From IMG/VR virus record IMGVR_UViG_3300021256_000096: 20,000 bases of DNA; one strand, given 5' to 3'. Source of the stretch: an uncultured virus (IMG/VR IMGVR_UViG_3300021256_000096). Lineage: Duplodnaviria; Heunggongvirae; Uroviricota; Caudoviricetes. Made by a program: the position numbers and the translations under genes. The notes beneath the pieces were generated by a model that saw nothing but the letters and a program-made list of their open reading frames with translations, was not told the DNA's origin and made no database searches. Of the stretch, positions 3 through 19,998 are shown one piece after another. Position 1 is the stretch's first letter. Each line of letters opens with the position of its first letter.

Positions 3-521
3 TTCACAGTGACAGAAGACGAAGCAGCAATGCATCGTGTGCGCTGCATAGTCAACAACTATCCCGAAAGGGCAATCACTGCTGGAACGTACTGGAGGCT
101 CACAGAATCCGGTTATCTCTATATGACAAATACACCGGCTGAGATACGTGACCACACTCAGTTCATCAATAAGGCTTGCGGAAACGTCCTCATAGCAGGA
201 CTTGGACTTGGGATGGTCGTTCAGGCGTTGCTTGACAAGGGAACTTGCGAACACATCACTGTAGTTGAGTTGTCCCAGGACGTCATCGACTTAGTCGGTC
301 CCTCTTACAACGACCCAAGAGTGGAGATCGTGTGCTGCGACATCTTCAAGTTCAAGCCGCAGATGCACTACGACTATGCCTGGTTCGACATCTGGCCTGA
401 TATATGCGGAGACAACTTCCCCCAGATGAAGAAACTTCACCGGAAGTTCGCAACCCACGTGAGCAATAGAGACTCATGGTGCTACAAGGAGTGCCGTAAG
501 AGACACAAAGAAGATATATAA
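3..521 (+). CDS. SAM-dependent methyltransferase, spermidine-synthase-like fold (probably 5'-truncated by the window)
   Basis: Class I motif I VLIAGLGLG, acidic motif II ITVVEL, then CDIF and YDYAWFDIW. The frame is open from base 3, upstream of the GTG at 9. Confidence 0.75.
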   Translation, partial: FTVTEDEAAMHRVRCIVNNYPERAITAGTYWRLTESGYLYMTNTPAEIRDHTQFINKACGNVLIAGLGLGMVVQALLDKGTCEHITVVELSQDVIDLVGPSYNDPRVEIVCCDIFKFKPQMHYDYAWFDIWPDICGDNFPQMKKLHRKFATHVSNRDSWCYKECRKRHKEDI

Positions 522-564
522 CGAAATCAAACAGCAGATATGTATAATTCAAAGAAATATAGTT

Positions 565-1002
565 ATGAGTAAACAAGATAGCAATATTAATAAGTTCGAA
601 TTGAATTACGCTAATACGGAATTCTACGAACGCCATAAAGAAAATGACGAAGCGCTCACAAACAAACCAAGACAGGCGCCACTTGAATGGCATCACTGGA
701 ACGACTTGTATGAGTTCTTCCGTGGTTACTTCAACTATTTCGGAGATGATATTTCTGCTTTAGATAAAGATACATTCGAAAGAATAGTAAAGACTATTTG
801 GAGAATATCTCGCACCTGTGCTGTATTCGACACTAGAAAAGAGTGCAAGGAAAATCAACTCACGTTCTCTAAACAATTGGCTGAATGGGCAAATTCTATC
901 AGAATGCATAATGAAGGAGTTGCAGACGAAACTGACAAAACAGATATGATTGGCCCGTTTGAACTATGGGAGATGGTAATGCATCAATCAACATCAAAAT
1001 AA
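565..1002 (+). CDS. hypothetical protein (145 aa)
   Basis: ATG after AT-rich leader, TAA stop, collinear with neighbours. Confidence 0.75.
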   Translation: MSKQDSNINKFELNYANTEFYERHKENDEALTNKPRQAPLEWHHWNDLYEFFRGYFNYFGDDISALDKDTFERIVKTIWRISRTCAVFDTRKECKENQLTFSKQLAEWANSIRMHNEGVADETDKTDMIGPFELWEMVMHQSTSK

Positions 1003-1025
1003 ATTCATAATTAAACTCAAATAAT

Positions 1026-1457
1026 ATGCAAACGAATAACAGTTCAAAAGAAGACAGTTCATTCTGGGGGATGGGAGTTCTAGTCGGAGGAATATTAGTA
1101 TTTCTTCTTGGATTGCTTGCTACGCCAAATAAGGACAATGCAGAAAACAAGGCCGACGAGAACAAGAAGTACATCTACTACGACGTCCCTACATATACAA
1201 CAGTATATGAGATCGTCTATCCGGACACTACATACCGCTACACGGCAGTTCACCACTCACCATCCCGACTGAGTTCTCACAGAGGAAGCAACTTCCTTTA
1301 TTCAGAACAACATTACGGAACATTTGGAGACCACGATCGTCCAGACTATTGGATTGATGAATGGAACAGTTCAGAATTAAACGTCGAGACGACTGCTCCG
1401 ATTCGCATCGTCAGCGAGACAGTGACTCATAAGAAAGTCAAATACGTGATAAAGTAA
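1026..1457 (+). CDS. hypothetical membrane-anchored protein (143 aa)
   Basis: Hydrophobic helix FWGMGVLVGGILVFLLGLLA near the N-terminus. Confidence 0.75.
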   Translation: MQTNNSSKEDSSFWGMGVLVGGILVFLLGLLATPNKDNAENKADENKKYIYYDVPTYTTVYEIVYPDTTYRYTAVHHSPSRLSSHRGSNFLYSEQHYGTFGDHDRPDYWIDEWNSSELNVETTAPIRIVSETVTHKKVKYVIK

Positions 1458-1790
1458 ATTCATAACAGAACTAAAGCAGTATACGAATATGAAGAATTAT
1501 ACATCAACAGTTTCTGCTGTAATCGCAGCCGCACTGAAAGAACGAGGCATAAAAATCAGTTCAAAGACTCCGACTTATGCGGACGTATTCGACTGGTTTA
1601 TGAAGAATGGTCTCTATGTTCATATCGAAGTTTTGCATGAGAATTATTTGGGAGAAATACATCGCTTAGATAAAATGGGAACATATGTCGATGGTTATTT
1701 CGGTGCAAATGTCATTAAGACTTGGAAGCAAGTTGCTGACGAGACAATCATCAAGGCTCTGAAGCACATCAAAGTAAATTCATAACAGAA
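1451..1790 (+). repeat. 20-bp perfect direct repeat AAAGTAAATTCATAACAGAA (1451-1470 and 1771-1790) bracketing one gene
   Basis: Two identical copies read directly; degenerate copies at 1001, 2137 and 2661. Confidence 0.9.
1489..1785 (+). CDS. hypothetical protein (98 aa)
   Basis: ORF in + block; PTYADVFDWF..GLYVHI resembles a common Bacteroidota phage small-protein motif (from recall). Confidence 0.75.
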   Translation: MKNYTSTVSAVIAAALKERGIKISSKTPTYADVFDWFMKNGLYVHIEVLHENYLGEIHRLDKMGTYVDGYFGANVIKTWKQVADETIIKALKHIKVNS

Positions 1791-1802
1791 TCAAACAAAT
1801 TT

Positions 1803-2129
1803 ATGATATTCAAGAAAGGAACATATATAATCACGGAAAGACAGTACGACAGTGCGAAGTGTGTCTGGCTCAGTGAGGACTTCGACCCACACAAGGACAA
1901 GTGGATTCCTTACAAGAACTGGTACGACGTGTACTACAAACCGCGCACAAAGAATGTCGTGACGGACGTCTATCCTGTATACGATGATGAAAATGGAGGA
2001 ACTCTCTCATTCGACCTCTCAGACAACTGGCATTACGCCGGCAAGAATGTCATCGGACATATCACGGGCGAATATCCGGAAAATAAGAAGACGAGACGTC
2101 ATACGACTCTCATCAGAATCGATTTATAA
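1803..2129 (+). CDS. hypothetical protein (108 aa)
   Basis: ORF in + block with AT-rich leader. Confidence 0.75.
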   Translation: MIFKKGTYIITERQYDSAKCVWLSEDFDPHKDKWIPYKNWYDVYYKPRTKNVVTDVYPVYDDENGGTLSFDLSDNWHYAGKNVIGHITGEYPENKKTRRHTTLIRIDL

Positions 2130-2166
2130 GTAGAACAAAATTTATAACAGAAGCAAACATACGAAT

Positions 2167-2670
2167 ATGAAAAGGTTAATGCTCAACAATGATAGTGAGT
2201 TCAATGCTTGGAAGTCTAACATTGACAAGCAGTATCCATCCGGACTCGACCACTTCAACCCAAGAGTTCCGAAAGCATATCCAGTGCTCGTGCTCTACTA
2301 TATGTACGAGATTGAAATTGACGCACATTTTGCTCCAATTAAGCAATGCGGATTCGACTATGTTTATCCGGCTGAGTTCGACACGAGCATCACTTCTGTC
2401 CAGGAACATCCAGAACTTATTATAGAGGGACGTCTGTGTAATGTCCGGATTCCTGAGCGACTGTGCGACAAGTACAATGTATTCGGAAATGAATGGTTGC
2501 CGGCCAAGATTGTTGCCGTAATAAACGAAGCCGGCAGCAATTATCCAACAGTCGTGGTAGACGTCCGGAAATCTAAGAAGTATGCGACCGATGCTATTCA
2601 CGAGCTTCGCTTGAAACCATCTGAAGTCGAGACTCATCTGATGTACAGAGACATTAAACAAAATTCATAA
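2167..2670 (+). CDS. hypothetical protein (167 aa)
   Basis: ORF in + block; start context ATACGAATATGAA shared with the gene at 1489. Confidence 0.75.
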   Translation: MKRLMLNNDSEFNAWKSNIDKQYPSGLDHFNPRVPKAYPVLVLYYMYEIEIDAHFAPIKQCGFDYVYPAEFDTSITSVQEHPELIIEGRLCNVRIPERLCDKYNVFGNEWLPAKIVAVINEAGSNYPTVVVDVRKSKKYATDAIHELRLKPSEVETHLMYRDIKQNS

Positions 2671-2695
2671 TAGAACCAATTAAACATAAAACAAT

Positions 2696-3028
2696 ATGAG
2701 ATTCAATGTATCAATAAAGCCAACCGTCTATACCGGTCATGGAACATACAGAAGCGCAATGGACAGGTTCCATTCTGTAATACCAGCAGTGACTTGCTTT
2801 ACTGTTAGTGGATACGGAAACTACTATGGCTCCATCAGGAGAAGAGGTGACAACGGCCCCGACTATGCGTACTGCTTCAACGTGGACGTATTCAAGAGAG
2901 GAAAGCATCGCAAGAATAAGCATTACACTCTCTACGTCTACAAAATTGACCTGAGACTGCTCGACATCCTGGGTATGAAGATTGACCAGCATCAGAGATA
3001 CTTCAGAATTGTCCCTAAGAAGAAGTAA
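2696..3028 (+). CDS. hypothetical basic protein (110 aa)
   Basis: ORF in + block. Confidence 0.7.
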   Translation: MRFNVSIKPTVYTGHGTYRSAMDRFHSVIPAVTCFTVSGYGNYYGSIRRRGDNGPDYAYCFNVDVFKRGKHRKNKHYTLYVYKIDLRLLDILGMKIDQHQRYFRIVPKKK

Positions 3029-3062
3029 GTGATTCGATAATGAAATCAAAACAGAAATAATT

Positions 3063-3440
3063 ATGGGATACTTAACAAGACACGTCATCACAATCATTCC
3101 TGAGTCCAAAGCGACTCAGGAAAACTACGTCCGTGTACGAAGAGCAATTGCTGAAGCTCTTGAAGAAGACGTCTACAATCATCTGACGATTTATTCAAAC
3201 CGGATGGATGACTTCGGTTTCAACTACGGGTTCGGTTCAAAGTGGTACCATAATGATTGTGCGAAGCGGGCATCAAAAGCAGTTCCAGACTTAACTATCC
3301 GGTTCAGATGCTTCGGTGAATCTAAAGATGGAGACGCTCTCCGAGATGAAACGTACGAGAACGGCGTCCTGGTTGAAAAGAAAGAACTGAATGTTGAAGA
3401 GTTCTGGAATTCATACGGCTATCACGGAACGTACACATAA
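3063..3440 (+). CDS. hypothetical phage protein (125 aa)
   Basis: MGY start, KWY, FRCFGE and YENG pattern typical of a small phage protein family (from recall). Confidence 0.75.
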   Translation: MGYLTRHVITIIPESKATQENYVRVRRAIAEALEEDVYNHLTIYSNRMDDFGFNYGFGSKWYHNDCAKRASKAVPDLTIRFRCFGESKDGDALRDETYENGVLVEKKELNVEEFWNSYGYHGTYT

Positions 3441-3457
3441 TCAAAAACAATTGCGTA

Positions 3458-3790
3458 ATGAAATCAAAATTCCCCAACATCTACGAGTTCCTCAACAGAC
3501 TGTACGCCTATCATCAGATTGACGACGTAGTCTACGATACTGCGCAGAAACTGCTTGATTATTTCCGGGACAACAAGACGTTCCAGATTTATAATCACGC
3601 AATGAACTCTGACCAGGACGTCCGGATTATGTTCGACGAACTCGTGGATTGGTGGATCGATGAACATTACCTCGACATCTCCAGTGAGCACGACACGTTA
3701 TACGAGTACAACGTCCTTACAGACAGAGAAACGAATAAAGTCATCAAGGACGAGGTTTTCCGTATTGTCAGGTCGTCTTCAAATGGATAA
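3458..3790 (+). CDS. hypothetical acidic protein (110 aa)
   Basis: ORF in + block. Confidence 0.7.
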   Translation: MKSKFPNIYEFLNRLYAYHQIDDVVYDTAQKLLDYFRDNKTFQIYNHAMNSDQDVRIMFDELVDWWIDEHYLDISSEHDTLYEYNVLTDRETNKVIKDEVFRIVRSSSNG

Positions 3791-3830
3791 TCGGTTGCTC
3801 CATCAAATCAATTAATGTGTTGGTTTTCTA

Positions 3831-3840
3831 TAGATAAATA
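3831..3840 (+). promoter_or_regulatory. TAGATAAATA, candidate phage late promoter (T4 TATAAATA-like)
   Basis: Identical 10-mer also at 12218-12227; both copies are intergenic, 26 and 35 nt before an ATG. Confidence 0.5.
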
Positions 3841-3866
3841 CAGAAAATTCAACACATTTATTTTAT

Positions 3867-4580
3867 ATGAACAAAGAACGGAAGAAAGCTCTCTACGAGA
3901 GTATAATGATGGATGTTGCAAAGATTGTAAAGCGTCGTATCATGGAGGCTGATAATGAGAGCAGCGTCGATAATGACCGGATGTACGTCAGCCTGGATAA
4001 AGACGGCAAGATCCGTTTAATATCCGAAGATGAAGTTTCGAATCTTATGAAGGGAGGCACTATTCGTGCTTACAACCCGAACGTGAAGGCCGGTCCGAAT
4101 GAGAAAGACTGGACGATGTACGCAGTGCGCGTCTCTGACATCAAGTGTGCCAAGTGCTCGTTCCTCGGAAAGAACGAGGGCTGGCCGGATTACTGGACGT
4201 CTTCGATGACACTGTGGGGCAAGGTCTCTTTCATTAAGGGAGGACACGGACAGTCGTGGGAACCGGAATTTCCGGGCAAGCTTGTCATCGAGTGTGATCA
4301 GAAGAAGAATTGCTACACGTTCACTCCGTATCAGTTCGACGGCAAGTACGATCAGATGAGCGCATACGGGGACAACGGCAACTATTCCCACTTCGTCCAC
4401 CGTGCAGTCAGCGTTCCGTACAACAGCGAGGAACGTGAAATCGAGGGTGACAAGAAGATCAAGTACTGGGTGAAGCATCTCAGCAGAGGCTTCCGCTCAT
4501 ACAACGCAGTCAAGACTCTCATCAAGAAAGGATATCTTGAAGTCAGGGACGGGGAACTCGTTCCGCAGGAGAAGAAATAA
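3867..4580 (+). CDS. hypothetical protein with MNKERKKALYESIMMDVAKIVKRRIME leader; possible virion-internal protein
   Basis: Leader resembles a recurrent N-terminal motif of Lak-like phage proteins (from recall) and ends in I-x-E; preceded by TAGATAAATA. Confidence 0.8.
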   Translation: MNKERKKALYESIMMDVAKIVKRRIMEADNESSVDNDRMYVSLDKDGKIRLISEDEVSNLMKGGTIRAYNPNVKAGPNEKDWTMYAVRVSDIKCAKCSFLGKNEGWPDYWTSSMTLWGKVSFIKGGHGQSWEPEFPGKLVIECDQKKNCYTFTPYQFDGKYDQMSAYGDNGNYSHFVHRAVSVPYNSEEREIEGDKKIKYWVKHLSRGFRSYNAVKTLIKKGYLEVRDGELVPQEKK

Positions 4581-4602
4581 TATATAGTTTCTGTAAGTAT
4601 AG

Positions 4603-4652
4603 AGAAGACGTCCTGCTCTACCATCAAATAGAACAGGACGTCTTCTTTCTTG
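4603..4652. terminator. intrinsic terminator between convergent blocks
   Basis: AGAAGACGTCCTG (4603-4615) and CAGGACGTCTTCT (4634-4646) form a perfect 13-bp stem followed by a T-rich tail. Confidence 0.8.
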
Positions 4653-4673
4653 TCTTGTGTTTGTCTGATTCCA

Positions 4674-4949
4674 TTACGAATCGTAACGGACATTGAACTT
4701 AACCTGGAGTTGACTGCGCTTGACGTTGATGACATACTCATTTGCTTCGAGTCTGTTCTTCCAGTCATTCAGGACAGCGTCCGTATATCCGTACTTTGTG
4801 TTCAGAGTGATGATGACTGCGAAGCCAGTGTCCTGACAAGTCTCCATATTGCACAATGTCGGCATATGATAATCCTTAATGACGTCTTCGTTCACTTCCG
4901 ACTTAATTTGCTTCAGAACTTCTGCTGCATGTTCAATTGTCTTTGCCAT
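4674..4949 (-). CDS. hypothetical protein (91 aa)
   Basis: Last ORF of the minus block. Confidence 0.75.
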   Translation of the reverse strand: MAKTIEHAAEVLKQIKSEVNEDVIKDYHMPTLCNMETCQDTGFAVIITLNTKYGYTDAVLNDWKNRLEANEYVINVKRSQLQVKFNVRYDS

Positions 4950-4967
4950 AATTGTTCTTTAGTTTGA

Positions 4968-5261
4968 TTATAGATTTGTAATATTGCCTTCCTCGTATAC
5001 GAGCACAATCCTTATCCGCTTCATCTGTTTGTTCGGATACGGAGTAGAATGCTCGATGATGAGATACTGATCCGTAAGATCAGTTGTATGGATACCTGTC
5101 CTCTCGTAATACTCTTCCTTATTCTTTATGTTAGCCAGGAGAACTTCCTTAGCTTCATCAAGAGTATCCAACTTCATAGAAGACGGAAAATCTTTTCCGG
5201 TCGACTTCCAGGTCTTAATTTCACCCTGACAGAAATGGGATATAGTATAATACGTTTGCAT
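4968..5261 (-). CDS. hypothetical protein (97 aa)
   Basis: ORF in minus block. Confidence 0.75.
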   Translation of the reverse strand: MQTYYTISHFCQGEIKTWKSTGKDFPSSMKLDTLDEAKEVLLANIKNKEEYYERTGIHTTDLTDQYLIIEHSTPYPNKQMKRIRIVLVYEEGNITNL

Positions 5262-5274
5262 AGCTTTATATATT

Positions 5275-5448
5275 TTAAAGACACTTTCCGTAGTACTTCA
5301 AAAATATCCGGTGAGCAAGTTCTTCAGCCGCTGTTCCAACCAAGTTGGTGTTGCGCCGAACCCAGTTCAATAAGATATTGTGTCTGGACGTTACATACGA
5401 TTCACTCAGCATACTCTTAGTCCTCCTTGATGTTAATGATTCGCGCAC
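5275..5448 (-). CDS. small hypothetical protein (57 aa from GTG 5448, or 45 aa from ATG 5412), not in ORF track
   Basis: Manual translation ...MLSESYVTSRHNILLNWVRRNTNLVGTAAEELAHRIFLKYYGKCL*; fills the gap in the operon. Confidence 0.55.
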   Translation of the reverse strand: MRESLTSRRTKSMLSESYVTSRHNILLNWVRRNTNLVGTAAEELAHRIFLKYYGKCL

Positions 5449-5458
5449 TTAAATTTTA

Positions 5459-5911
5459 TTATAAATGTTCTCCGAAATATCTGATAGACACTTCGATTCC
5501 TGTCTGCTTCTCGCACAGTTCGTCTGCAAATACGGGTGCTCCTGAGACAATACAGTCGCGCTGAGAGTAGCGGAGATTCGTCACTAGGCGTGCGGCGATG
5601 CTCACTTTCTCTGGAGAACCCTCACAATCCATAACGAAACTCGTCAGATGCTTCTTCTTTGCGTCCATAAACTGATTGAAGAATTCTTCCTCTTGCTCAC
5701 GCATCTCCTGCTCATAGTCAGTCTCCAATGACTCGTACTCAGCGATTATTGACTGGAAACCACCATCATCGCGCAGGCTCAGCCAGACGTCCGAACTTTT
5801 CACTTCAGCCGGTATCTGCTTCCTGGCGTACTCTATCGCAAGGTTCAACTGCTCAAGCGTCATATCCAGAGAACACACGACGTTTAATGTCCTTTTGACT
5901 TTCTGTTTCAT
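5459..5911 (-). CDS. hypothetical protein (150 aa)
   Basis: ATG overlaps the upstream TGA (ATGA coupling). Confidence 0.75.
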   Translation of the reverse strand: MKQKVKRTLNVVCSLDMTLEQLNLAIEYARKQIPAEVKSSDVWLSLRDDGGFQSIIAEYESLETDYEQEMREQEEEFFNQFMDAKKKHLTSFVMDCEGSPEKVSIAARLVTNLRYSQRDCIVSGAPVFADELCEKQTGIEVSIRYFGEHL

Positions 5912-6054
5912 TGCGAATCCCTTTCTATTTTATACGATTCAATCTTCACGCCGTCTTTACCCGGCCAGTTCTCGAACATGTCTTCAATGACTAACTCATC
6001 GCAGACGTCCGAGTAATTCTTCCAATCCACATTGAATTCAACTGTCACTTTCAT
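5908..6054 (-). CDS. small hypothetical protein (48 aa), not in ORF track
   Basis: MKVTVEFNVDWKNYSDVCDELVIEDMFENWPGKDGVKIESYKIEKDSQ*; starts 3 nt after the upstream stop and is ATGA-coupled to the next gene. Confidence 0.7.
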   Translation of the reverse strand: MKVTVEFNVDWKNYSDVCDELVIEDMFENWPGKDGVKIESYKIERDSQ

Positions 6055-6057
6055 ATC

Positions 6058-6603
6058 TTACCAGACTTTCTTAAGCTTTATGCCATTCTTGTTGTTCAGT
6101 TCCGCATAATGCTCCTTATAATAAGGGAACAGTTCGTAGAATCTCTTCCAGGTCGCATCAGAACGCTTTATCGACGGGATGCGAACCCGATGATGATTAT
6201 CACCTCCGCCACTGCTGTTGTATACAAACTTCTGGTTGTCCTTATTCACAGTGCGACGGACGTACTTATATGACTGCTTCTCCTTGTATCTCTCACGATT
6301 GCGTTCGAGTTCAGCAAGGACGTCTTCAAGGGGAATGAGATTGCATTCATCATCAAACCTGACCTCCCATAGCATCCAATCGCTACAGTAGTCACGCAGT
6401 GCCTTGCCGGTCAGAGTCGTCTTCGTAGCAATCCTTGCATATGACTTCTTCGCATTAGCAATGCGAGCATCGAACCTTTTGTCAATATCAGCAAGGTATT
6501 GTTCGAGAGATTTGTTTTCCCCCAATGCGTAACTGTTAGCCGGACGTCGAGTCTTGTAACTATAGTGGCGCAAGTCCTTCTGATAACCTTTATCTTTTCT
6601 CAT
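6058..6603 (-). CDS. hypothetical basic protein (181 aa)
   Basis: TAATG coupling with the upstream gene; C-terminal RVRIPSIKRS..TWKRFYELFP motif. Confidence 0.8.
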   Translation of the reverse strand: MRKDKGYQKDLRHYSYKTRRPANSYALGENKSLEQYLADIDKRFDARIANAKKSYARIATKTTLTGKALRDYCSDWMLWEVRFDDECNLIPLEDVLAELERNRERYKEKQSYKYVRRTVNKDNQKFVYNSSGGGDNHHRVRIPSIKRSDATWKRFYELFPYYKEHYAELNNKNGIKLKKVW

Positions 6604-7280
6604 TATTCTTCGAATTTATATTTTGTATTCTTCTCTATAAACTTCTTGAACGCATCTGTCTTATCGAATTTGTTGTATCCGATGCACATCTCAAGTCCGT
6701 CATTGTAATCCCATTTCTCAGGAATCGCTATGAAACTCTCTGACTCTTTCTCGAATTCGTCTACAGTCATCTCCATACAGAACACTCGGTAGTTGTCCAG
6801 GTTGGCATATGCTCTCCGGTCGTCTGTAAGTTCTTCGATGAATGAGAACGGGTCCATCAAGATTCCCATCATACGGTCGCCCAACATCGTCTTCTTTTCT
6901 CTTAATAGATGTTCTTCAGTGTTCACTGTCGGAACCATTCTGGGCTGATACGGCATTTCCTTATTCTCGTAGAGCTTGTGAAACAGCCATCTGAACGAAC
7001 ATCCGGCGAGTCCCTTTGCGTCCTGAGAATCGTGGATTATCTCCACACATCTCTCTTCTGTGCATCTCTGATTGATTAGCGGCTCGTGCTTCCACCACAA
7101 TCTTGCGATTTCGTCCAGAGTCTTGTGCTTCGTCCAGAACAGATAACCGCCAGTCGTTGAGAAACACTTCACGACAGTGTTCTCGTTTCCGGACGTTGTG
7201 TAGTACTCTTTCATCTTCTCGAAGAACTCATCTACAGTGAGTATGAGGACTTCTTTGTTGTTCAGTGTATCGCGTTCCAT
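6603..7280 (-). CDS. hypothetical protein (about 225 aa; ATG 7280 preferred over TTG 7310)
   Basis: ORF in minus block; TTG 7310 lies inside the intergenic repeat motif. Confidence 0.75.
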   Translation of the reverse strand: MERDTLNNKEVLILTVDEFFEKMKEYYTTSGNENTVVKCFSTTGGYLFWTKHKTLDEIARLWWKHEPLINQRCTEERCVEIIHDSQDAKGLAGCSFRWLFHKLYENKEMPYQPRMVPTVNTEEHLLREKKTMLGDRMMGILMDPFSFIEELTDDRRAYANLDNYRVFCMEMTVDEFEKESESFIAIPEKWDYNDGLEMCIGYNKFDKTDAFKKFIEKNTKYKFEE

Positions 7281-7317
7281 AATGAAATCATTGTTTCGTT
7301 TGATTATCAATTCTAAG

Positions 7318-7941: not shown

Positions 7942-7966
7942 AGTTCTTTCCTGTTTGATTGTCAAT

Positions 7967-8425: not shown

Positions 8426-8449
8426 AATTATTATCTTTGATTTCTACCG

Positions 8450-8634: not shown

Positions 8635-8661
8635 CACAAAGAAATAAAAACAATAAGTAAT

Positions 8662-9267: not shown

Positions 9268-9277
9268 AAACGTCAAT

Positions 9278-12072: not shown

Positions 12073-12095
12073 TCTCTATTGTTTCCATATTTTGA

Positions 12096-12144
12096 GGGGA
12101 CGTTCGGACATCCACGATTCGTGGGTTCTGACGTCCCTATTTTG
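12096..12144 (+). terminator. intrinsic terminator
   Basis: GGGACGT...CCACG-ATT-CGTGG...ACGTCCC hairpin followed by TATTTT. Confidence 0.7.
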
Positions 12145-12217
12145 GTTTCATAGCGAACCCATCAGAAATAAAAAATAAACTTTTTCTTGCCGTTTGCGTA
12201 TAATCTTTGAAAAACAG

Positions 12218-12227
12218 TAGATAAATA
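12218..12227 (+). promoter_or_regulatory. TAGATAAATA, second copy of the candidate late promoter
   Basis: Identical to 3831-3840; lies after a terminator and before the AraC gene. Confidence 0.5.
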
Positions 12228-12262
12228 AAAAAGAAAAATAAATCAAGAGAAGAATACTTAAT

Positions 12263-12760
12263 ATGGAAATTAATCAGAATTTATCTCGCAAGAAGATTAC
12301 AGATCCTAAATACAACAGGTTCGTCAAGGAGGATGTTCTCGATGATCTGGAAGAGAAGATTAAGGACATTCTCATCCGTAAGGAGAAGTACAAGGATCCG
12401 GACTACAATGCGAAGAAACTCGCCGAAGACTGCGACACCAAGATGACACGCATCTCTATAGCATTCAATTCAAGATTCAAGATGAATTACAATATGTTCG
12501 TCAACAAGCAGAGAGTCGATGCTATCAAGAGAATGCTCTCTGACGAGAAGTTCGACGATATGAACATCCCAGAAATCGCAAAGCTCGCAGGATTCAAGAC
12601 CATCATTCCCGTCTTCAGTGCATTCAAGTGCTTCGAGGGTATGACTCCTTTTGAGTACCGCAAGACCCATAATCCGGACAGAATCAAGAAGCGTCACGAG
12701 AAGAAGGACGCTGCGGCCGGCAAGAAGAAGAGAGGGAGAAAGCCCAAACAACAGCAATAA
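12263..12760 (+). CDS. AraC-family HTH protein (DNA-binding domain only) with basic AT-hook-like tail
   Basis: YKDPDYNAKKLA, NYNMFVNKQRV, IPEIAKLAGF and FKCFEGMTPFEYRK match the AraC signature; tail KKKRGRKPK. Confidence 0.85.
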   Translation: MEINQNLSRKKITDPKYNRFVKEDVLDDLEEKIKDILIRKEKYKDPDYNAKKLAEDCDTKMTRISIAFNSRFKMNYNMFVNKQRVDAIKRMLSDEKFDDMNIPEIAKLAGFKTIIPVFSAFKCFEGMTPFEYRKTHNPDRIKKRHEKKDAAAGKKKRGRKPKQQQ

Positions 12761-12784
12761 GAAACTGTACCATATCCTAAGTAG

Positions 12785-12837
12785 GACGTCTGAAATCGGA
12801 ATCGATAACGAAACTGAAGTCAGACGTCTGATTTTTA
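12785..12837 (+). terminator. hairpin or terminator after the AraC gene
   Basis: GACGTCTGA / TCAGACGTC 9-bp arms with inner pairing, followed by TGATTTTT. Confidence 0.6.
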
Positions 12838-12905
12838 TCATATAAAATTAAACTAAATAATAATTCCTGAGTACAATAGTAAAGAGAAATGTCAGATGAT
12901 GAGAT

Positions 12906-13259
12906 ATGATAGCACTTAGAGTTCCGGAAGATGAATTGACTCAAGCGTTTGTTGATTATCGGGAAATGTTCACACGTCGTAAAGTCGTCCACTACGGTCC
13001 TGAGTACATCATAGAGACTGAGAGTCTGTTAGAACGTCAGAACGCTCTGATTGATGAGTTGAAATGTATATTCAAGTTCAACGATTGGCAAGTTCGTGCA
13101 GATTGGACGATACTGGACATCATTATCGCTAACAGAGACGAGAATGAAAGGATAATATCGGACTTTGTCTCAGAAAGAGGATTCATTATTATTCCGAAGA
13201 GCAAAGAACTCATCAACGACAGCATCTCATTCAAGCATCTGCTATGCACTCTGAAATAA
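12906..13259 (+). CDS. hypothetical protein (117 aa)
   Basis: ORF in + block. Confidence 0.7.
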   Translation: MIALRVPEDELTQAFVDYREMFTRRKVVHYGPEYIIETESLLERQNALIDELKCIFKFNDWQVRADWTILDIIIANRDENERIISDFVSERGFIIIPKSKELINDSISFKHLLCTLK

Positions 13260-13283
13260 AACGAAATGTAACTTATATATTAT

Positions 13284-13937
13284 ATGTCACTATTAAGAAA
13301 CAAGACCGCAGAAGAGATAGTCAGTTTCATCCAGGGATGGCTCTGGGCTATCGATGCACATAACGACGAATTCAATGACCAGAACGTCGTGTTCCACGTC
13401 TTACAAGATATACTAGCATACGCTTGTCCCAACGGATTCGGAAAGACAGATGACAAGCAGGAGACAGCAGAGACTGTCAACCACATCCCGACACATGAAG
13501 AACTCATCGGACGTCTGACTGCACGTCCTGAGGATTTGGATCTACGATTCAAGTCGAAGAATGTCCGGACAGTGAACATCAAGGAGGATGGTGAGACGTC
13601 TGAAGATTACAATATGACATTTGAAGAAGCACAGGCATACTGCTCGAAACGCGGCATCGACATCCCTTGGAACGACGGTGATATTTATATAGATGGGAGA
13701 GAACTCACACGCTCCATCGGAAACGTTCTCAAGTGGGCTGACGAACATCCGAAGGTAGAACTTCCTAAGTGGAAACGTATGCCTCTGTCTGACCAAAGTT
13801 ACGTGGACGACTTTGCCTGCGTCACACATGTCATCACTTCAGAGAAGAACGGAACCAGCACTTCAGTAGAGGCTGTTCAGAAGGGTAACTATTATATCCC
13901 GATGTTCGACCTGGAGAAGTTTCCGAAAGAAAAGTAA
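13284..13937 (+). CDS. hypothetical phage protein (217 aa)
   Basis: ORF in + block; KWADEHP..PKWK motif recurrent in Bacteroidota phage proteins (from recall). Confidence 0.8.
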   Translation: MSLLRNKTAEEIVSFIQGWLWAIDAHNDEFNDQNVVFHVLQDILAYACPNGFGKTDDKQETAETVNHIPTHEELIGRLTARPEDLDLRFKSKNVRTVNIKEDGETSEDYNMTFEEAQAYCSKRGIDIPWNDGDIYIDGRELTRSIGNVLKWADEHPKVELPKWKRMPLSDQSYVDDFACVTHVITSEKNGTSTSVEAVQKGNYYIPMFDLEKFPKEK

Positions 13938-14010
13938 AACACTTACTACATAATATTTTACTGTTTCATAAACTGATATTTTTGAAGTCAAAAGGTTACA
14001 ATTGACACTC

Positions 14011-14051
14011 ACCCGAACTAGTCGAGATGACTATAGTTCGGGTTATTTTTT
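14011..14051 (+). terminator. intrinsic terminator ending the + block
   Basis: ACCCGAACTA / TAGTTCGGGT 10-bp perfect stem followed by TATTTTTT. Confidence 0.85.
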
Positions 14052-14242
14052 GCAAATATCCCAGAATCGTCATTTTGCAATATTTGTCTCCAGGACGTTA
14101 GACGTCCTTTCTTATACGGAAATCAAACTTGGAATCGTTACGAAACCAAACTATCATTTTCTTGACAGAACCAAGGTCCAGATCTCTGAATCCGGCAGCA
14201 GAATCCGGACATTGTGTCTAGATTCTCATCCAGGATACAAAC

Positions 14243-14278
14243 AAAAGAAGACGCCCGACTCATCGCGAGCCAGACGTC
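14243..14278 (-). terminator. intrinsic terminator ending the - block
   Basis: Minus strand reads GACGTCTGGCTC-GCGAT-GAGTCGGGCGTC-TTCTTTT, a 12-bp stem with three G-U pairs that works only on this strand. Confidence 0.85.
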
Positions 14279-14319
14279 CAGAAATCAAAAACCTACAATT
14301 GGAAATAGTAATTAAATTG

Positions 14320-14538
14320 TTATAACATTTCGTATTCGCCCATAACAATAGCGTCTTCAGTGAACTCTAATCCATCACCCTTGCCTTGCCACTCTTCTTC
14401 GTGTGAGTAGCCTTCGGTACTGATGCAGTTCACTCTGAGATAATCACGCTCTCTGTCCACTTCAAGGACTTGGAAGCGCATAGGGTTTGTACAACCCGGC
14501 CACGCTTGCTTGAACCAATCACCTACTTTCAGTTCCAT
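14320..14538 (-). CDS. hypothetical protein (72 aa; MELKVGDW, SH3/KOW-like start)
   Basis: ATG 14538; last gene of the minus block. Confidence 0.75.
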   Translation of the reverse strand: MELKVGDWFKQAWPGCTNPMRFQVLEVDRERDYLRVNCISTEGYSHEEEWQGKGDGLEFTEDAIVMGEYEML

Positions 14539-14553
14539 AATCAAAAATCCTTA

Positions 14554-14928
14554 TTATTTAAAATCGTTCAACATCGCTTTTCTCACAGTGTTCGCTATGA
14601 CTGTCAAGTCACGCAGTTCCAGTTCTCTATGTAGATTATCTTGAGTTCCATCCTTAAGTCCGGACGCAAAGTCATTGAACATCTTCAGGAACAAGTCCAG
14701 AGAACTATAGTTTCTCTCAGGACGTTTAGCATCAGGTTCTTCAACAGAGAGGATATCATCATTTACACGCTGGACGTCCCAATAGATGCTATTCTCTTGC
14801 CTGCGGCAAGCATACTTGCTGATGTCGTCGATAACGCTGCTGCTAGCGTCCATAATTCCGTAGATGTTGTCGTATATGTCTCCGCACTTATCAGGGACGT
14901 CTACATTGATTTTGATTTCGTATTTCAT
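14554..14928 (-). CDS. hypothetical protein (124 aa)
   Basis: ATGA coupling with the upstream gene. Confidence 0.75.
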   Translation of the reverse strand: MKYEIKINVDVPDKCGDIYDNIYGIMDASSSVIDDISKYACRRQENSIYWDVQRVNDDILSVEEPDAKRPERNYSSLDLFLKMFNDFASGLKDGTQDNLHRELELRDLTVIANTVRKAMLNDFK

Positions 14929-15338
14929 TCTGAATCCTTCTTTACTTGTTCTAACCTTGCTGTGTACTTATCGACTCTTTCCTTAGCCATAGCCAGATGC
15001 TTCTGACAGCGTTCGACTTCCTCATTGGCGAACCAGAGAAGGTCCTCTATCATCTTCTTATAAGTTGCAACTGCTTCAGTCCTATCTGCGAAGAACATAT
15101 TCTTGTATGAGGACTTCCCGAAACTATTCGCACTGACAACAATAGCACGCTCAGAAAGCCGGCCGTCTGGATCTTTTCCAAGAGCGATATACGAATTCGG
15201 ATGTTCGGATTCAGTATCTCTGTTGAATTCGGACGTCAACTTCCACTTCAGTGCATATACGTCCGAGTAAGACTTCTTGATCTCATAGACGAAGTCTCCA
15301 ATCTTCAGTTCCTTGAATGTTCTCGCCATATACTTCAA
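14925..15338 (-). CDS. hypothetical protein (about 134-137 aa; likely ATG 15329) with C-terminal coiled coil
   Basis: TFKELKIGD start motif and helical C-terminus. Confidence 0.75.
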   Translation of the reverse strand: MKYMARTFKELKIGDFVYEIKKSYSDVYALKWKLTSEFNRDTESEHPNSYIALGKDPDGRLSERAIVVSANSFGKSSYKNMFFADRTEAVATYKKMIEDLLWFANEEVERCQKHLAMAKERVDKYTARLEQVKKDSE

Positions 15339-15357
15339 TTCTCATTTCGTTATATAA

Positions 15358-16038
15358 TCAACGAAAGTCGCAGCTATCATCTATTTTCGTTTCAACTTCT
15401 CCAGCTAATTTCAAGAGTTTTCTGTACTTCTTCATATAGTCTGTGAGAATCTTAATTGGAAGTTCTTTCCCGATTCTCTCAAGAGTCTCAACAGTCCAAC
15501 CTGTCATATTAGAGTATTTCTTTTCGTGAGGAAAATTCTCTTTAAACGGAGCAGTCTCGAACGTCAAGTCGAAATAGTTCCGGTCTTCACGAAAGTCAAT
15601 CGTCAGTGTATAGTACGCAGTAGCGTCGTATACAGTCTGTTCGAGATGACATATCTTGGGCTTCAGACGCTTCTCGCACTCTATGCGCATTCCGCATTCA
15701 TCTACAAGAAATCTTCCCAAGTCGTCGAGCGTGCAATACGAACGGTAGTCCTGAGCAATCTTACAGTAGTCAGACCTGTACTTACCCTCCTTGCGTCCGC
15801 ACTGTTCCAAGAAATCAGGATTCCAGTCATCACGGCTACAACTGTAGAAATGCTCGTCATCTCCACGGTGAATGGTCACTTGATTCGGAGTCACCATAAT
15901 TATAATGGGAGCAGAACTTCCAGAGTTCATCAGCATATAACTACCTGGCTACGTGCTTGAGGGATACGCCCAGAAGTTGCAGTGCTGAAAGAATCTGGAA
16001 AAGTCGTCCAACTGGTCGAAATGTTTCTTTTTGCTCAT
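15358..16038 (-). CDS. hypothetical protein, 226 aa if the in-frame TAG at 15949-15951 is read through (192 aa otherwise)
   Basis: ATG 16038 gives MSKKKHFDQLDDFSRFFQHCNFWAYPSST-TAG-PGSY-MLMNSG..., in frame with the 15358..15936 ORF. Confidence 0.7.
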
Positions 16039-16054
16039 AACAGTTCATATTTGA

Positions 16055-16333
16055 TTAAATATTGAAATCAACCCACTCTTCGTACACTTTCTCTTCCGGA
16101 GAGAGATGCTTGTATGGATACTCGCCTTTGTTCCAGTTAGCATTGTGCTCTTCTGGATTCTTCGGAACGTACTTGTGGACGAGATACTCGCCGTCGTCAG
16201 AACGGCACTGCCCGTCATCAATGACGATATGCAGATTCTCCTTAGGAGAGTATCCTATGATTTCTGCACATCCGTCCACCCACATAGTGTCCTTCGGGAA
16301 CAATGATGTCAGCTTGCAGAATGAGATGTTCAT
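16055..16333 (-). CDS. hypothetical protein (92 aa from ATG 16333)
   Basis: ATG lies 1 nt after the upstream TGA. Confidence 0.7.
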   Translation of the reverse strand: MNISFCKLTSLFPKDTMWVDGCAEIIGYSPKENLHIVIDDGQCRSDDGEYLVHKYVPKNPEEHNANWNKGEYPYKHLSPEEKVYEEWVDFNI

Positions 16334-16334
16334 A

Positions 16335-16664
16335 TCAATGGATGTTCTTATGAATGAAATCAATCAATTCGTCCGGAGCCTCGTGTAAGAAGATGTTAAT
16401 CCAGGAATTGTTCCTGTTCCTCATATTAATGCGGACTTTGCGTTCAGCAGCGTCAGACATATTTTCATTCACACAAGTCATAGAGACGCAGACGACTTCT
16501 ACAGAGTCAACACTGTTCTTGAACTCATAGTCTTTGTTGATGTTGATACGCTTGGTGTAAACTTTGTCGTCGATGTCCTCGCCCAAGATGTCATTCTTTG
16601 ACGTTTCAATACCGTTGCTCAGAACAGCATCGAAGATTTCTGAAATAACTTTTTCCTTGTTCAT
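16335..16664 (-). CDS. hypothetical protein (109 aa)
   Basis: ORF in minus block. Confidence 0.75.
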   Translation of the reverse strand: MNKEKVISEIFDAVLSNGIETSKNDILGEDIDDKVYTKRININKDYEFKNSVDSVEVVCVSMTCVNENMSDAAERKVRINMRNRNNSWINIFLHEAPDELIDFIHKNIH

Positions 16665-16702
16665 ATTATCTTTCTTTAATTCATTATCAATTCAAACTTT
16701 CT

Positions 16703-16990
16703 TTACTGAAACGGACTTCCAACAGCATAGTTGTACGACTTGAGAATTGCCTGCTCTTTCTCGTTCAGCCCGTTCTGACGGACTTTGCAGATTCCGAAGA
16801 AGTATCTCAGGTTTCCTCTCCATTTACAGTCTTTGAACAGTTTCCACAGACAACCAATCTTAGTCGTCGCCCACTCTATCTCAATCTCACAAGAAGGAAC
16901 GCCGTTATCGTCCAGTACCCACAGAGAGACTATAGGGTTGTCATTTACGTTTCTGCTCCAGATGAGCATCGATTTCTTTATCTTAGCCAT
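16703..16990 (-). CDS. hypothetical protein (95 aa)
   Basis: ORF in minus block. Confidence 0.7.
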   Translation of the reverse strand: MAKIKKSMLIWSRNVNDNPIVSLWVLDDNGVPSCEIEIEWATTKIGCLWKLFKDCKWRGNLRYFFGICKVRQNGLNEKEQAILKSYNYAVGSPFQ

Positions 16991-16994
16991 AAAT

Positions 16995-17192
16995 TTATCT
17001 TTTACTTAACAGATGTATATTAACCCATTGAGGGATGTAGTCTCCGACATTTCTCGCTTCGACCATACAAGCATAGTCTCCATACATATAGTCTGGACCA
17101 TAGTATATTACACCAGGAATCTTTTTGTTCTTATCACTCTGGTCCGGATGATACCAGACTTTCGTTCCTATTTTACAGTCTTGTAACTTCAT
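16995..17192 (-). CDS. small hypothetical protein (65 aa from ATG 17192), SH3-like
   Basis: MKLQDCKIGTKVWYHP pattern. Confidence 0.7.
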   Translation of the reverse strand: MKLQDCKIGTKVWYHPDQSDKNKKIPGVIYYGPDYMYGDYACMVEARNVGDYIPQWVNIHLLSKR

Positions 17193-17367
17193 GTTCAGTA
17201 ACATTTACGAATTCACACAGACACAGAGCACCGTCCTCACGGTAACGCCAGAAGTTCGGCTGTAAAACGTACGGAGACCACCAGTGCTTCTTCTCGGCAA
17301 TCATATAGTACGGCTCAGAACCGTCTCGTGGTTCAATCTTGTAAATCTTCGCTTTCGTCTTGCTCAT
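17173..17367 (-). CDS. small hypothetical protein (64 aa)
   Basis: ORF in minus block; KKHWW motif. Confidence 0.65.
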   Translation of the reverse strand: MSKTKAKIYKIEPRDGSEPYYMIAEKKHWWSPYVLQPNFWRYREDGALCLCEFVNVTEHEVTRL

Positions 17368-17388
17368 AATACTCAGTAGATTTGATTA

Positions 17389-17832
17389 TCAATTTTCTTT
17401 CTCTTCTCGCTTCATCCGTTCAATCTCAGCGTTTCTCTTCGCTCTCCACTCAGCAATGCGCTGCTTCTTTTCTTCCGGAGACAGTTTCTTGAACTCGTCT
17501 TCCTCACGCTTTGCTTCGTCCAGGCGGACTTTCATCTCAGAGAAGTTCCCGACGAAATCTTCGAACAGTTCTTCGAATATTGTCTGGACGTCTTCCCAAG
17601 TGACTGCGACAGCAGAATTCTCTAAAGCGTCTATCAAGTCGTAGTGTTTCCTGTATGGGCTGCGCAGGTGATAAATCTTCTCACCGTCCACTCTCATATA
17701 CGGAGTGAAGTCAGCCGTACACATAAGGCCCAGTCCTATCTGAGAGCAGTACTCGGAACTCCATGGATTGAGCGTGCTCGAACCGTCCTTGAATTCAATC
17801 GTATGTTCTTCTATCTTGTAAGTATTCCCCAT
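17389..17832 (-). CDS. hypothetical protein (147 aa) with charged helical C-terminus
   Basis: ORF in minus block. Confidence 0.75.
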   Translation of the reverse strand: MGNTYKIEEHTIEFKDGSSTLNPWSSEYCSQIGLGLMCTADFTPYMRVDGEKIYHLRSPYRKHYDLIDALENSAVAVTWEDVQTIFEELFEDFVGNFSEMKVRLDEAKREEDEFKKLSPEEKKQRIAEWRAKRNAEIERMKREEKEN

Positions 17833-17854
17833 ATTAATCAGCGTTGTTTATATG

Positions 17855-18058
17855 TTATTCGTCTTCCTTTCTCCAGAGAGTGTTCTCCATCACATCTGAG
17901 TTTGAGAACGAAATCAGTTCGTCGAGATTGTCTAATCCGTACTTCTCTAAAGTCTCTTTGTCCAACTTGATGTCTTTCTCATCCTCAATCAGACAGAGAA
18001 GAGTCTTGTACGGCGTCAGCAGATTCCTGAGATGTGCGCCTAATGTTTCTGTTGCCAT
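17855..18058 (-). CDS. small hypothetical protein (67 aa from ATG 18058)
   Basis: The longer track ORF overlaps the upstream gene; ATG 18058 follows its stop. Confidence 0.65.
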   Translation of the reverse strand: MATETLGAHLRNLLTPYKTLLCLIEDEKDIKLDKETLEKYGLDNLDELISFSNSDVMENTLWRKEDE

Positions 18059-18074
18059 ATATTGTCTCCTTTCA

Positions 18075-19058
18075 TTAACAATTCTCAGAGCATTCTTCCC
18101 ACTTTTCTGTCTCTTTGAGTTCATCATCTCCGAACTTCCAGTTCTTAATGTAGCCCTTTGAGTCGACTTCGAATTCCAGATAGTCTCCGTATCCCTTATC
18201 TTCAATAGACAGAAACTCTGGGACGTAACTGTCTAAGACTCTCAACTTTCTCTGAGCGATGTCAAGAAGTTCATAATGACCCGTGTCCACAATCTTCACT
18301 GTACGGAAGTCTCCGGTCTTCCCGTCTGGCCAATTCTCAATATGACCGTTCTCTATATTGATGAGCAGCTCGATTTCATCTTTGTCATTCACGAGACTTG
18401 GGAAATCTTTCCTGAGATTGCTCCACGCAGCGACATCATCCATCTGGTCGTATATCTTCCCGTTCAGTTCAACCATCTCCAGCCAGTAGTCAATCTCCTT
18501 AGTGAAGCGTATGAACTTCGGACGTCTGAGTTCATCATCATGCTTCTTAGAGAATACTTCTGTGACGTCCATAATGGAATTCATGGCATCTGCCATATGA
18601 GCAAACGCTGCCCTCGTGTCCGCAGAAACATCAGTCAGGAGAATCTCACGACCGGTCTCATTGAATCCGCACTCATAGAACGCAATGTCACCGGCTGGAC
18701 GTCCGTTGAAGTGGAAGAACGCCTGGAGGACGAATGGTGAGTTCGTGTATACGAAGACGTGAGGTGCAAGATCGTCGTTCCTCATCTTTTCGACCAGAGT
18801 CTTCACCAAAGCAATCTGATCCACCGGATGCGAATCGTCGAAGCAGTACTTCTGAAGTCCGAATTCCGTATTGTAGAAGTTATGGTCGTCCACACGATGA
18901 CAAGCGTGCGCCATAACAATATCGCTAACGACATCGCTAAGTCTGTTACTCAGCCCCGGACATCCGATGACGACTATAATCTTCTTAGTTACGTCTACTA
19001 TCTGCGGGTTGATGATTCTAAGTCCGCTTATTGCCTCTGAGAAATGCTTCAGTTCCAT
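18075..19058 (-). CDS. two-domain protein: degenerate ABC/AAA_15-like ATPase remnant plus a phage hypothetical domain
   Basis: VVIGCPG, FDDSHPVDQ and VFVYTNSPFVL echo the Walker A, LHP..Q and THSP motifs; C-terminal NWP..KIVDTG.Y.LLD..YVP..GYGDY..NW. Confidence 0.7.
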   Translation of the reverse strand: MELKHFSEAISGLRIINPQIVDVTKKIIVVIGCPGLSNRLSDVVSDIVMAHACHRVDDHNFYNTEFGLQKYCFDDSHPVDQIALVKTLVEKMRNDDLAPHVFVYTNSPFVLQAFFHFNGRPAGDIAFYECGFNETGREILLTDVSADTRAAFAHMADAMNSIMDVTEVFSKKHDDELRRPKFIRFTKEIDYWLEMVELNGKIYDQMDDVAAWSNLRKDFPSLVNDKDEIELLINIENGHIENWPDGKTGDFRTVKIVDTGHYELLDIAQRKLRVLDSYVPEFLSIEDKGYGDYLEFEVDSKGYIKNWKFGDDELKETEKWEECSENC

Positions 19059-19066
19059 AATGAATT

Positions 19067-19540
19067 CTATTTGTCGTTGAAATTAATGTTCTTACTATAT
19101 ATACAGACGAAGTCCCAAGAAGTTCTGTTTCTTTCAGCGCACTTGAGATTACTGTCGTAAGTTTCTTTCTCCAGGAACGAACCGTCGTTGTTGATTCCGA
19201 ATGCTCTATCTTCAGTGAATGAGTAGAACAGATTTCCGGACGTCTCTCCGATGTTTCCTGACGTCCACATGGACATATCAAGATGAGAGTCGTTAACTGG
19301 AGAATACACAGAGACAACGTACCAATACGCCCTCAGGTTTGCCGGTAGTGTGCTCTGCAAGTCACTGTCGTAGTCAGCAGGAGAGAGTTTCTTCCACCAG
19401 ATGCCGTCTATAGTCTTGTTGCACGGATATGCAATTCCGTCTTCTCTGATGACGTAGAATTCCAGATTCAAGTCTCCGCGAGTCACGATGATGTTGCCCG
19501 GCTTCCAGAACAGTTCTTTCTTGGTCTTTGTTGATTCCAT
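19067..19540 (-). CDS. hypothetical protein (157 aa from ATG 19540); ends in TAG or reads through to TGA at 19049
   Basis: The track start at 19711 overlaps the upstream gene; this is the only called gene ending in TAG. Confidence 0.7.
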   Translation of the reverse strand: MESTKTKKELFWKPGNIIVTRGDLNLEFYVIREDGIAYPCNKTIDGIWWKKLSPADYDSDLQSTLPANLRAYWYVVSVYSPVNDSHLDMSMWTSGNIGETSGNLFYSFTEDRAFGINNDGSFLEKETYDSNLKCAERNRTSWDFVCIYSKNINFNDK

Positions 19541-19554
19541 AATCAATTCAGAGT

Positions 19555-19998
19555 TTAATAGTCGTTTGTGTACCAGTCGTTGAAGTAATGCTTCGTTTTC
19601 GTCTCCAGGGCTTTCAGCGTGTCTGCATGGAAACACTCGTGCCAGTATGATAACTTGGCATAGAGTTTCTTTATCTTCTCGGCCAGTTTCGTACGTTCCG
19701 GAGTTCCCCATGCGTACTTCTGCGCTTCTGCTCTCAGGACGCTCAACTGTCCTTCTATTTTCTTGTTGCTCTTCCTTCTCTTCAGATAGAGGACGTACTC
19801 GTGCTTCGAGATTTTGTGACAGTACTGCACGGACTTGAAGAACGGGATTACGTTGCGTCGCACCATCGATATTTTAACGTCTAAGTCCTCATAGAGAACT
19901 TTCTCAGTCTCGGACTTGCGGTACAGTTCGTCGACGTCTATACCAGTCTTCATATAGCAGTACGGAGTGTACCACAGAGACACTGTGGTACACTCCGT
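19555..19998 (-). CDS. hypothetical protein, 5' end uncertain (runs into the terminal inverted repeat)
   Basis: Frame is open to the window edge; possible starts are GTG 19983 or ATG 19953. Confidence 0.65.
   Translation of the reverse strand, partial: TECTTVSLWYTPYCYMKTGIDVDELYRKSETEKVLYEDLDVKISMVRRNVIPFFKSVQYCHKISKHEYVLYLKRRKSNKKIEGQLSVLRAEAQKYAWGTPERTKLAEKIKKLYAKLSYWHECFHADTLKALETKTKHYFNDWYTNDY

Follow-up and report, generated by a model that had tools for sequence, protein, structure and literature searches.

The word GGACG and its distribution in the window

The 20,000-nucleotide stretch analysed here (the window; IMG/VR record IMGVR_UViG_3300021256_000096) has a guanine-plus-cytosine (GC) content of 43% and is dense with short genes, most of them without a known family (Table 1). 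It belongs to a tailed phage, as had been assumed, since a contig of 93% identity (L162) extends into a prohead protease gene; this protease has a weak match (E-value 0.001) in G001 (L287–L320), a complete Lak-like relative of 673 kb and 41% GC. The subject of this study is the pentamer GGACG, or CGTCC on the opposite strand, which recurs in and between genes across the window. A preliminary description of the same DNA had seen an over-represented palindrome, GACGTC, with TCCGGA as a second one, and had likened the pattern to HIP1, the highly iterated palindrome (HIP) of cyanobacteria.

Table 1. Features of the window, in positions counted from its first letter (SAM, S-adenosylmethionine).
Feature	Position	Strand	Remark
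GGACG/CGTCC pentamer, n = 102 (52 +, 50 −), 5.1 per kb	185..19795	.	Preference GGACGT > GGACGC > GGACGA
GACGTC palindromes, n = 40	279..19938	.	32 of 40 include the GGACG half on one strand; own residual odds ratio 2.5 (1.7–3.5)
TCCGGA, n = 24	1220..19702	.	Mostly CCGG bias, common to kin without GGACG
SAM-dependent methyltransferase, spermidine-synthase-like fold	9..521	+	Matches do not indicate a DNA methyltransferase
Protein with N-terminal KALYESIM..VAKIVK motif	3867..4580	+	Motif common to phage contigs of 0.2–0.67 Mb
Intergenic stretch with two GACGTC (4607, 4637)	4581..4673	.	Similar pair at 12785/12823; further sites at 14093–14278
Promoter-like element with TATCTTTGCA	8603..8664	+	Similar copy at 9819–9892
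ParB-like / DndB-GmrSD N-terminal-like domain protein	9956..10816	+	Weak matches, under the Pfam thresholds; no evident link to the word
N6-adenine DNA methyltransferase-like protein, 256 amino acids, NPPF motif	11302..12072	+	Candidate
AraC-type helix-turn-helix regulator	12263..12760	+	–

The palindrome counts were largely as first reported. GACGTC occurs 40 times at the coordinates claimed, the fused form GACGTCCGGA lies at 2560 and 3617, and for TCCGGA, put at about 23, the excess was real and the exact number is 24. Base composition predicts 3.5 sites of each word, giving an 11.4-fold excess of GACGTC and a 6.9-fold excess of TCCGGA, and a second-order Markov model expects 12.3 and 10.8. 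The tenfold excess originally estimated therefore holds against base composition, but in genes it shrinks to about 2.5-fold when amino-acid sequence and codon usage are held constant. In 500 synonymous-codon shuffles of 40 hand-picked genes, the 32 observed GACGTC sites compared with 12.9 ± 3.0 (highest shuffle, 24), and the excess extended to all three frames (18/7/7 versus 10.3/1.1/1.5 expected), to TCCGGA (22 versus 7.5) and to the near match ACGTCC (30 versus 6.9). Codon use accounts for the count of GAATTC in genes (19 versus 18.6; 21 in the window). Between genes, eight GACGTC sites occupy 2,403 bases where 0.19 were expected. The excess thus survives codon shuffling, in every frame and outside genes, as had been claimed. 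A mobile repeat or repetitive extragenic palindromic element was rejected, as the flanks of the GACGTC sites differ. A fourth-order Markov model expects 35.2 sites against the 40 seen, a ratio close to the value of 1 at which the preliminary description was prepared to give up the palindrome, and this near-fit hints at a shorter, shifted word.

The unit of the excess is an asymmetric pentamer rather than the palindrome. We modelled synonymous codon choice conditionally at 12,206 sites, with terms for codons and junction dinucleotides, and added words greedily; the odds ratios are pooled over the window and its kin, and their intervals, which assume independence among codon sites, are somewhat narrower than they should be. 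Words entered in the order GATC (avoided), GGACG/CGTCC (z 16.4), AGCT (avoided), CCGG and CATG (avoided), so that the first enriched word was the non-palindromic GGACG. It was also the first enriched word in each of two sub-lineages, group A (the window and its kin at 93–95% identity; z 10.0) and group B (L163, L166 and their kin; z 12.9), and the top enriched word of at least five letters in 19 control sets of similar size reached z 8.0. In the joint model the odds for GGACG were 4.4 (3.6–5.3), and GACGTC kept odds of only about 2–2.5 (Table 1); the same two words had odds of 1.08 and 0.10 in G001. The sixth base is graded, with odds of 9.1 for GGACGT, 5.1 for GGACGC, 3.5 for GGACGA and 1.1, i.e., no enrichment, for GGACGG. 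Among variant words, GGACA had odds of about 2, GGACTT 2.4 and GGACC 0.16–0.43. Bases upstream of GGACG had no effect, and the two-sided GGACGTCC brought no extra gain beyond GGACG (0.28 and 0.72). The excess of GACGTC and GGACGTCC largely arises because GGACGT overlaps its own reverse complement. Two longer words, TCCTGAG (16 versus 3.0) and CGGACTT (15 versus 2.5), were also enriched after codon shuffling in group A genes.

TCCGGA is mostly an expression of CCGG bias and does not qualify as a second palindrome. It is 5.2-fold over-represented in G001 as well (528 sites), where GACGTC stands at 0.4-fold (36 sites), and the CCGG odds (3.4–4.9) are alike in group A, group B, G001 and the word-free kin L168 and L172, so TCCGGA is not special to the lineage. 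The words GATC, AGCT, CATG, CGCG and GGWCC are strongly avoided, with odds ratios of 0.06–0.3. Avoidance of CATG is strong in the window's group (odds 0.09) and slight in group B (0.66), which hints that the two groups face different restriction systems in their hosts.

The pentamer is dispersed over the DNA without strand or spacing preference. Sites occur roughly once per 150–200 bases on both strands in the lineage, evenly over the window and about 35 kb of kin DNA, all from loci around one genome region. Strand counts in the stretches examined were 52/50, 78/76, 21/24 and 47/48, with no skew. Enrichment holds in both gene senses (3.6 and 6.7) and in non-coding DNA (13 versus 1.6 and 33 versus 3.0 expected, i.e., 8–11-fold), indicating that the force acts on DNA; an RNA-level or promoter signal was rejected because both senses are enriched. 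No clear period was found between 5 and 60 bases in stretches of up to ~20 kb, and the gaps between sites are near random (coefficient of variation 0.85, 1.02 and 1.27). The IS605 tnpB gene in L162 contains no GGACG against 6.2 expected (P 0.002), which fits a slow build-up of the word in resident DNA. The Asp-Val dipeptide is raised 1.44-fold and 1.93-fold in groups A and B and stands at 1.03-fold in G001.

Spread and turnover among relatives

The GACGTC/GGACG signal marks one lineage, of which two groups were sampled. Relatives were gathered by alignment of the window's methyltransferase family, which yielded 80 metagenome loci. GACGTC was over-represented 9–16-fold in 11 of the 14 loci of at least 53% identity (L165 equals L166 in sequence), and the excess therefore extends beyond the window, as had been anticipated. 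The other three of these closest loci, L168 and L169 (near duplicates) and L172, had no excess, and the remaining metagenome loci carried at most five GACGTC sites each, one locus of under 1,100 bases being skipped. Only 0–2 sites each were found in 43 loci with the KALYESIM motif and in the best 80 of at least 585 RecA loci. The density of GGACG is 4.6–9.5 per kb in the lineage versus 1.0–1.2 in L168, L172 and G001. Groups A and B are about 70–77% identical in shared genes. Motif-cluster scans of viral contigs (at least 121 loci, and 85 loci) returned mostly high-GC chance matches, and no long contig with the profile of the lineage appeared among the top 40 matches or the long loci below 55% GC. 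One 8.9-kb viral contig of 50% GC (L366), whose kinship to the lineage was not shown, had GACGTC at 7-fold and GGACG at only 2.1-fold. In an unrelated 87-kb viral record, all five GGACGTCC sites were clustered at its two ends (L408; G006:22-53, 87325-87384).

The lineage accumulates GGACG(T/C/A) in resident DNA and keeps its density while single sites change. The methyltransferase gene has five GGACG sites in the window and eight in L166, none of them at the same place, and the recent branches of group B show three clear gains, three clear losses and two unclear events. The differing positions together with these recent changes indicate that sites turn over and that both groups gained sites after their split. 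In each of 10 pairs of relatives, not independent of one another, a larger fraction of sites was shared for GGACG than for GC-matched pentamers (e.g., 0.88 versus 0.69 and 0.67 versus 0.47).

Recent mutations remove the word far more often than they create it. Among singleton variants of the window and five kin, losses and gains of GGACG stood at 17:2 compared to 220:177 for control words (p 0.003). Transition variants gave 23 losses and 4 gains where matched rates predict 22.8 and 4.5, and the 23:4 ratio deviates from equality (p 0.008) after allowing for a general C>T excess. Losses and gains at ordinary rates that are far from equal argue against an active mutation bias. Of the selected or mutationally driven genome-wide mark proposed earlier, the dispersed DNA-level word dense in relatives is retained, and an active mutational drive is disfavoured. 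The neighbours of GGACG reached through T are not drained (GAACG 1.25, GGATG 0.96, GGACA 1.9), AGACG is not depleted (76 versus 69 and 61 versus 54), and the signature of Vsr-type repair, i.e., one depleted T-neighbour with raised gains, is not seen for GGACG. In window 1–14560 and the kin L159–L164, singleton gains of CCGG are raised (9 versus 3.8, mostly CTGG/CCAG to CCGG) and balance its losses, unlike those of GGACG; the numbers are small, and the CCGG excess may be repair-driven. Variation was lower at A/T positions within the words (3 versus 13.9; control median ratio 0.77), but these numbers are small and are not relied on.

A proposed methylation mark and its alternatives

The preliminary description had named methylation, self-recognition, recombination, packaging and nucleoid binding as possible functions, with no preference among them. 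The word is most likely the site of a phage methyltransferase, to which we assign a probability of about 0.4. A phage-encoded sequence-specific protein would read GGACG on double-stranded DNA, and each added site would bring a slight benefit that acts after mutation, with a scaled value of about ln 4.4 = 1.5. The methylated site may shield nearby phage DNA from nucleases, or alleles carrying the site may prevail during recombination and heteroduplex repair between co-infecting strains. A methylation mark is favoured because alternate HIPs pair with matching methyltransferases (PMC4390886), and because G001 encodes a SAM synthetase and about 8 C5-methyltransferases (11 matches). The candidate enzyme of the window, encoded at 11302..12072, is predicted to fold like the catalytic domain of M.BseCI and M.TaqI (predicted local distance difference test score 86; E-value 2e-10).

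Several observations weigh against the methylation mark. The model of the candidate stops at the catalytic domain, without the C-terminal target-recognition domain, and homologs of the methyltransferase are also present in kin without the word; the protein is thus only a candidate, and any enzyme or reader of GGACG is a putative one. The graded preference from GGACGT to GGACTT resembles the profile of a binding protein more than the strict site of a methyltransferase, and the methyltransferases of G001 go with depletion, not excess, of GACGTC. There is no clear hot spot of the kind expected from 5-methylcytosine, the transition losses by position being 10, 4, 1, 4 and 4 against expectations of 5.8, 4.4, 2.2, 5.9 and 4.5. 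Singleton losses are not reduced in the window's group (23 versus 22.8). Selection of the inferred strength predicts a loss count of 0.79–0.84 of the neutral value, a deficit so small that weak selection and a recent relaxation in group A are indistinguishable. The non-redundant DNA covered from the word-bearing lineage amounts to only about 55 kb.

The word could instead be an unmethylated binding or stop signal, such as a private Chi-like site tuning a phage recombination nuclease or a site for a coating or packaging protein. The graded and asymmetric preference, the lack of both strand bias and a methyl-type mutation hot spot, the word-free sampled hosts, and the RecA, helicases and exonuclease that G001 encodes itself are all in keeping with such a signal. 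We nevertheless consider it unlikely, as no reader was found, the sites have neither periodicity nor regular spacing, the two-sided GGACGTCC earns no bonus, and an excess of Chi in lambdoid phages accompanies a lack of recombinases (PMC3784561). About as unlikely is a word without function, left behind by biased repair or mutation (very-short-patch repair or the methyl-directed ratchet of Elhai) that has since slowed or ceased in the sub-lineage of the window. A by-product is suggested by the ordinary rate of singleton losses, the raised CCGG gains, the weaker signal in the window's group than in the L166 group (GGACGT 7.1-fold versus 14.4-fold), and the dominance in the former of GGACGTCT/AGACGTCC, one transition from GGACGTCC (19 versus 4 sites). 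However, an equilibrium mutation bias needs gains to equal losses, at odds with the 17:2 and 23:4 ratios, and no T-neighbour is drained, contrary to patch repair.

A host protein that reads the word, as AddAB/RecBCD reads Chi, or as part of an uptake signal or a defence, would let the phage pass as self. Host Chi is over-represented in some lambdoid phages (PMC3784561), and no clustered regularly interspaced short palindromic repeat (CRISPR) spacer matched in 401 Bacteroidales genomes. Against this, the density of GGACGTC peaks at about 0.22 per kb in these 401 genomes, drawn from a single Bacteroidales family centred on a Bacteroides record, and at about 0.15 per kb in 301 genomes across Bacteroidales, compared to 1.25–3.3 per kb in the phage lineage; the host densities are counts of this 7-mer, not of the pentamer, over rounded genome sizes. 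The chromosomal enrichment by which a host Chi is recognised was absent from both sets, which may not include the true host. A host reader is therefore improbable, and a host-type recombination or uptake site, among the functions first suggested, is disfavoured. The last alternative attributes the excess to codon use combined with avoidance of the sites cut by host restriction (GATC, AGCT, CATG, CGCG, GGWCC); it is largely refuted and scarcely credible. The avoidance is strong, also for GGACC, and codon shuffling cuts the GACGTC excess from 11-fold to 2.5-fold; yet GGACG retains odds of 4.4 with avoidance terms in the model, non-coding DNA is enriched, and G001, L168 and L172 avoid GATC and AGCT equally while their GGACG odds are 1.08 (G001) and 1.56 (L168 and L172 combined).

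The word may be part of a private genome-marking system, a proposal we hold slightly more tentatively, in which a phage enzyme or binding protein would read GGACG(T) chromosome-wide. Such marking would tell the phage's own DNA from that of the host or of rival phages, or bias recombination; its drive would have reshaped the genome so far as to alter the encoded proteins, and the word would be missing or switched in related lineages. Phages normally avoid short words recognised by host enzymes. This lineage avoids GATC, AGCT and CATG yet piles up a word that the sampled hosts lack, which would imply a phage-side machine that reads the phage genome at hundreds to thousands of sites. If so, phages of this lineage would possess in GGACG their own equivalent of HIP1, Chi and uptake sequences.

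Known iterated words and the phage that carries GGACG

GGACG, an asymmetric pentamer iterated in one lineage of rumen megaphages and apparently private to it, resembles HIP1, Chi and uptake sequences but lies outside the definitions of HIP and Chi. HIP1 (GCGATCGC) and the alternate HIPs of cyanobacteria are likewise short words, dense in and between genes (PMC4390886, PMC5861425, PMC13756078). Both they and GGACG are shared by relatives more than control words, patchy over lineages and plausibly tied to methylation, the accessible text of PMC4390886 associating alternate HIPs with a matching methyltransferase and making no mention of phages. The likeness to HIP1 drawn in the preliminary description thus holds for over-representation beyond composition and codon use and for conservation in relatives above control words, the latter alongside an ordinary singleton loss rate; it does not hold for the palindromic unit or for quasi-periodic spacing. 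GGACG differs from HIP1 in lying in a phage genome, in its non-palindromic core and graded sixth base, in its lack of periodicity and in having only a putative matching methyltransferase. It is denser, at one per 150–200 bases against about one per kb for HIP1, and less enriched, with 4–9-fold odds against 15–300-fold for HIPs.

Like Chi, GGACG is short, asymmetric, dispersed and found in any frame of genes, and it is over-represented in a phage as Chi is in Chi-rich lambdoids, which borrow a host word whereas GGACG looks phage-private (PMC3784561). It differs from Chi in lacking replication-linked strand skew in the stretches seen and in its absence from the sampled genomes of the host order. 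DNA uptake sequences and uptake signal sequences accumulate through a weak drive via recombination, are surrounded by near matches and show through in protein sequence. The accumulation, near matches and protein imprint of GGACG are similar, but the word is much shorter, the phage has no known uptake step, and no terminator pairs are formed. An excess of a short methyltransferase-type word is common to GGACG and the Dcm/Vsr bias; they differ in that no one-off T-neighbour of GGACG is depleted and its singleton gains are not raised. Whether HIP1-type words originate from selection or repair bias is a long-standing question, one well suited to study in an abundant multi-strain phage lineage with word-free near relatives. 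The word is also useful in practice for binning rumen-metagenome contigs that belong to this lineage. Judged by titles and with partial coverage, the literature contains no report of GGACG iterated in phages; supplementary methylome tables could list a GGACG enzyme. No over-represented motifs in jumbo phages were found in this literature, where iterated palindromes were only cyanobacterial or compositional, and a term search of PMC11165621 gave no occurrence of motif, palindrome or methyltransferase.

The window appears to come from a Lak-like rumen megaphage, one grouped only tentatively with the Lak phages (Grandevirales). Its KALYESIM motif is presumably typical of Lak phages, and two of the 0.2–0.67 Mb contigs sharing it have TAG codons within the terminase gene. 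TAG recoding and a GC content of ~26% are typical of Lak megaphages and not required of every member; the window has neither, its genes being open under translation table 11. G001 has no CTAG genome-wide, encodes an EcoRI-type methylase and gave no match to Vsr. Contigs of 836, 733 and 368 kb (P0292, P0125 and P0278) carry homologs of the window methyltransferase and of G001 RecA, and relatives may therefore rank with the largest phages. The window methyltransferase family was absent from four large phage records searched, three window proteins used as queries found no further close viral contig, one window protein had no match among GenBank phages, and the window holds no transfer RNA gene.

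The phage probably infects Bacteroidota. Six of the ten weak matches of the window in the 401 Bacteroidales genomes fall at the TATCTTTGCA element, and this resemblance to Bacteroidales intergenic DNA points to such a host; the element also fits TAnnTTTG, the consensus of the Bacteroidota promoter box. Sequencing runs containing the stretch come from 13 studies, chiefly of sheep, bovine or unnamed gut metagenomes. Contigs from four of them span all 30 bins of the window, with gene-sized gains and losses between strains. At 1790–2159, 12878–13273 and 15330–16055, entire small genes are skipped in other strains, and at two of these points the junction letters are identical across several runs, indicating that the region is a set of exchangeable cassettes. 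In L166 (5749–6867), a single protein combines an excisionase-type helix-turn-helix, a coiled region and an RNA polymerase alpha C-terminal domain.

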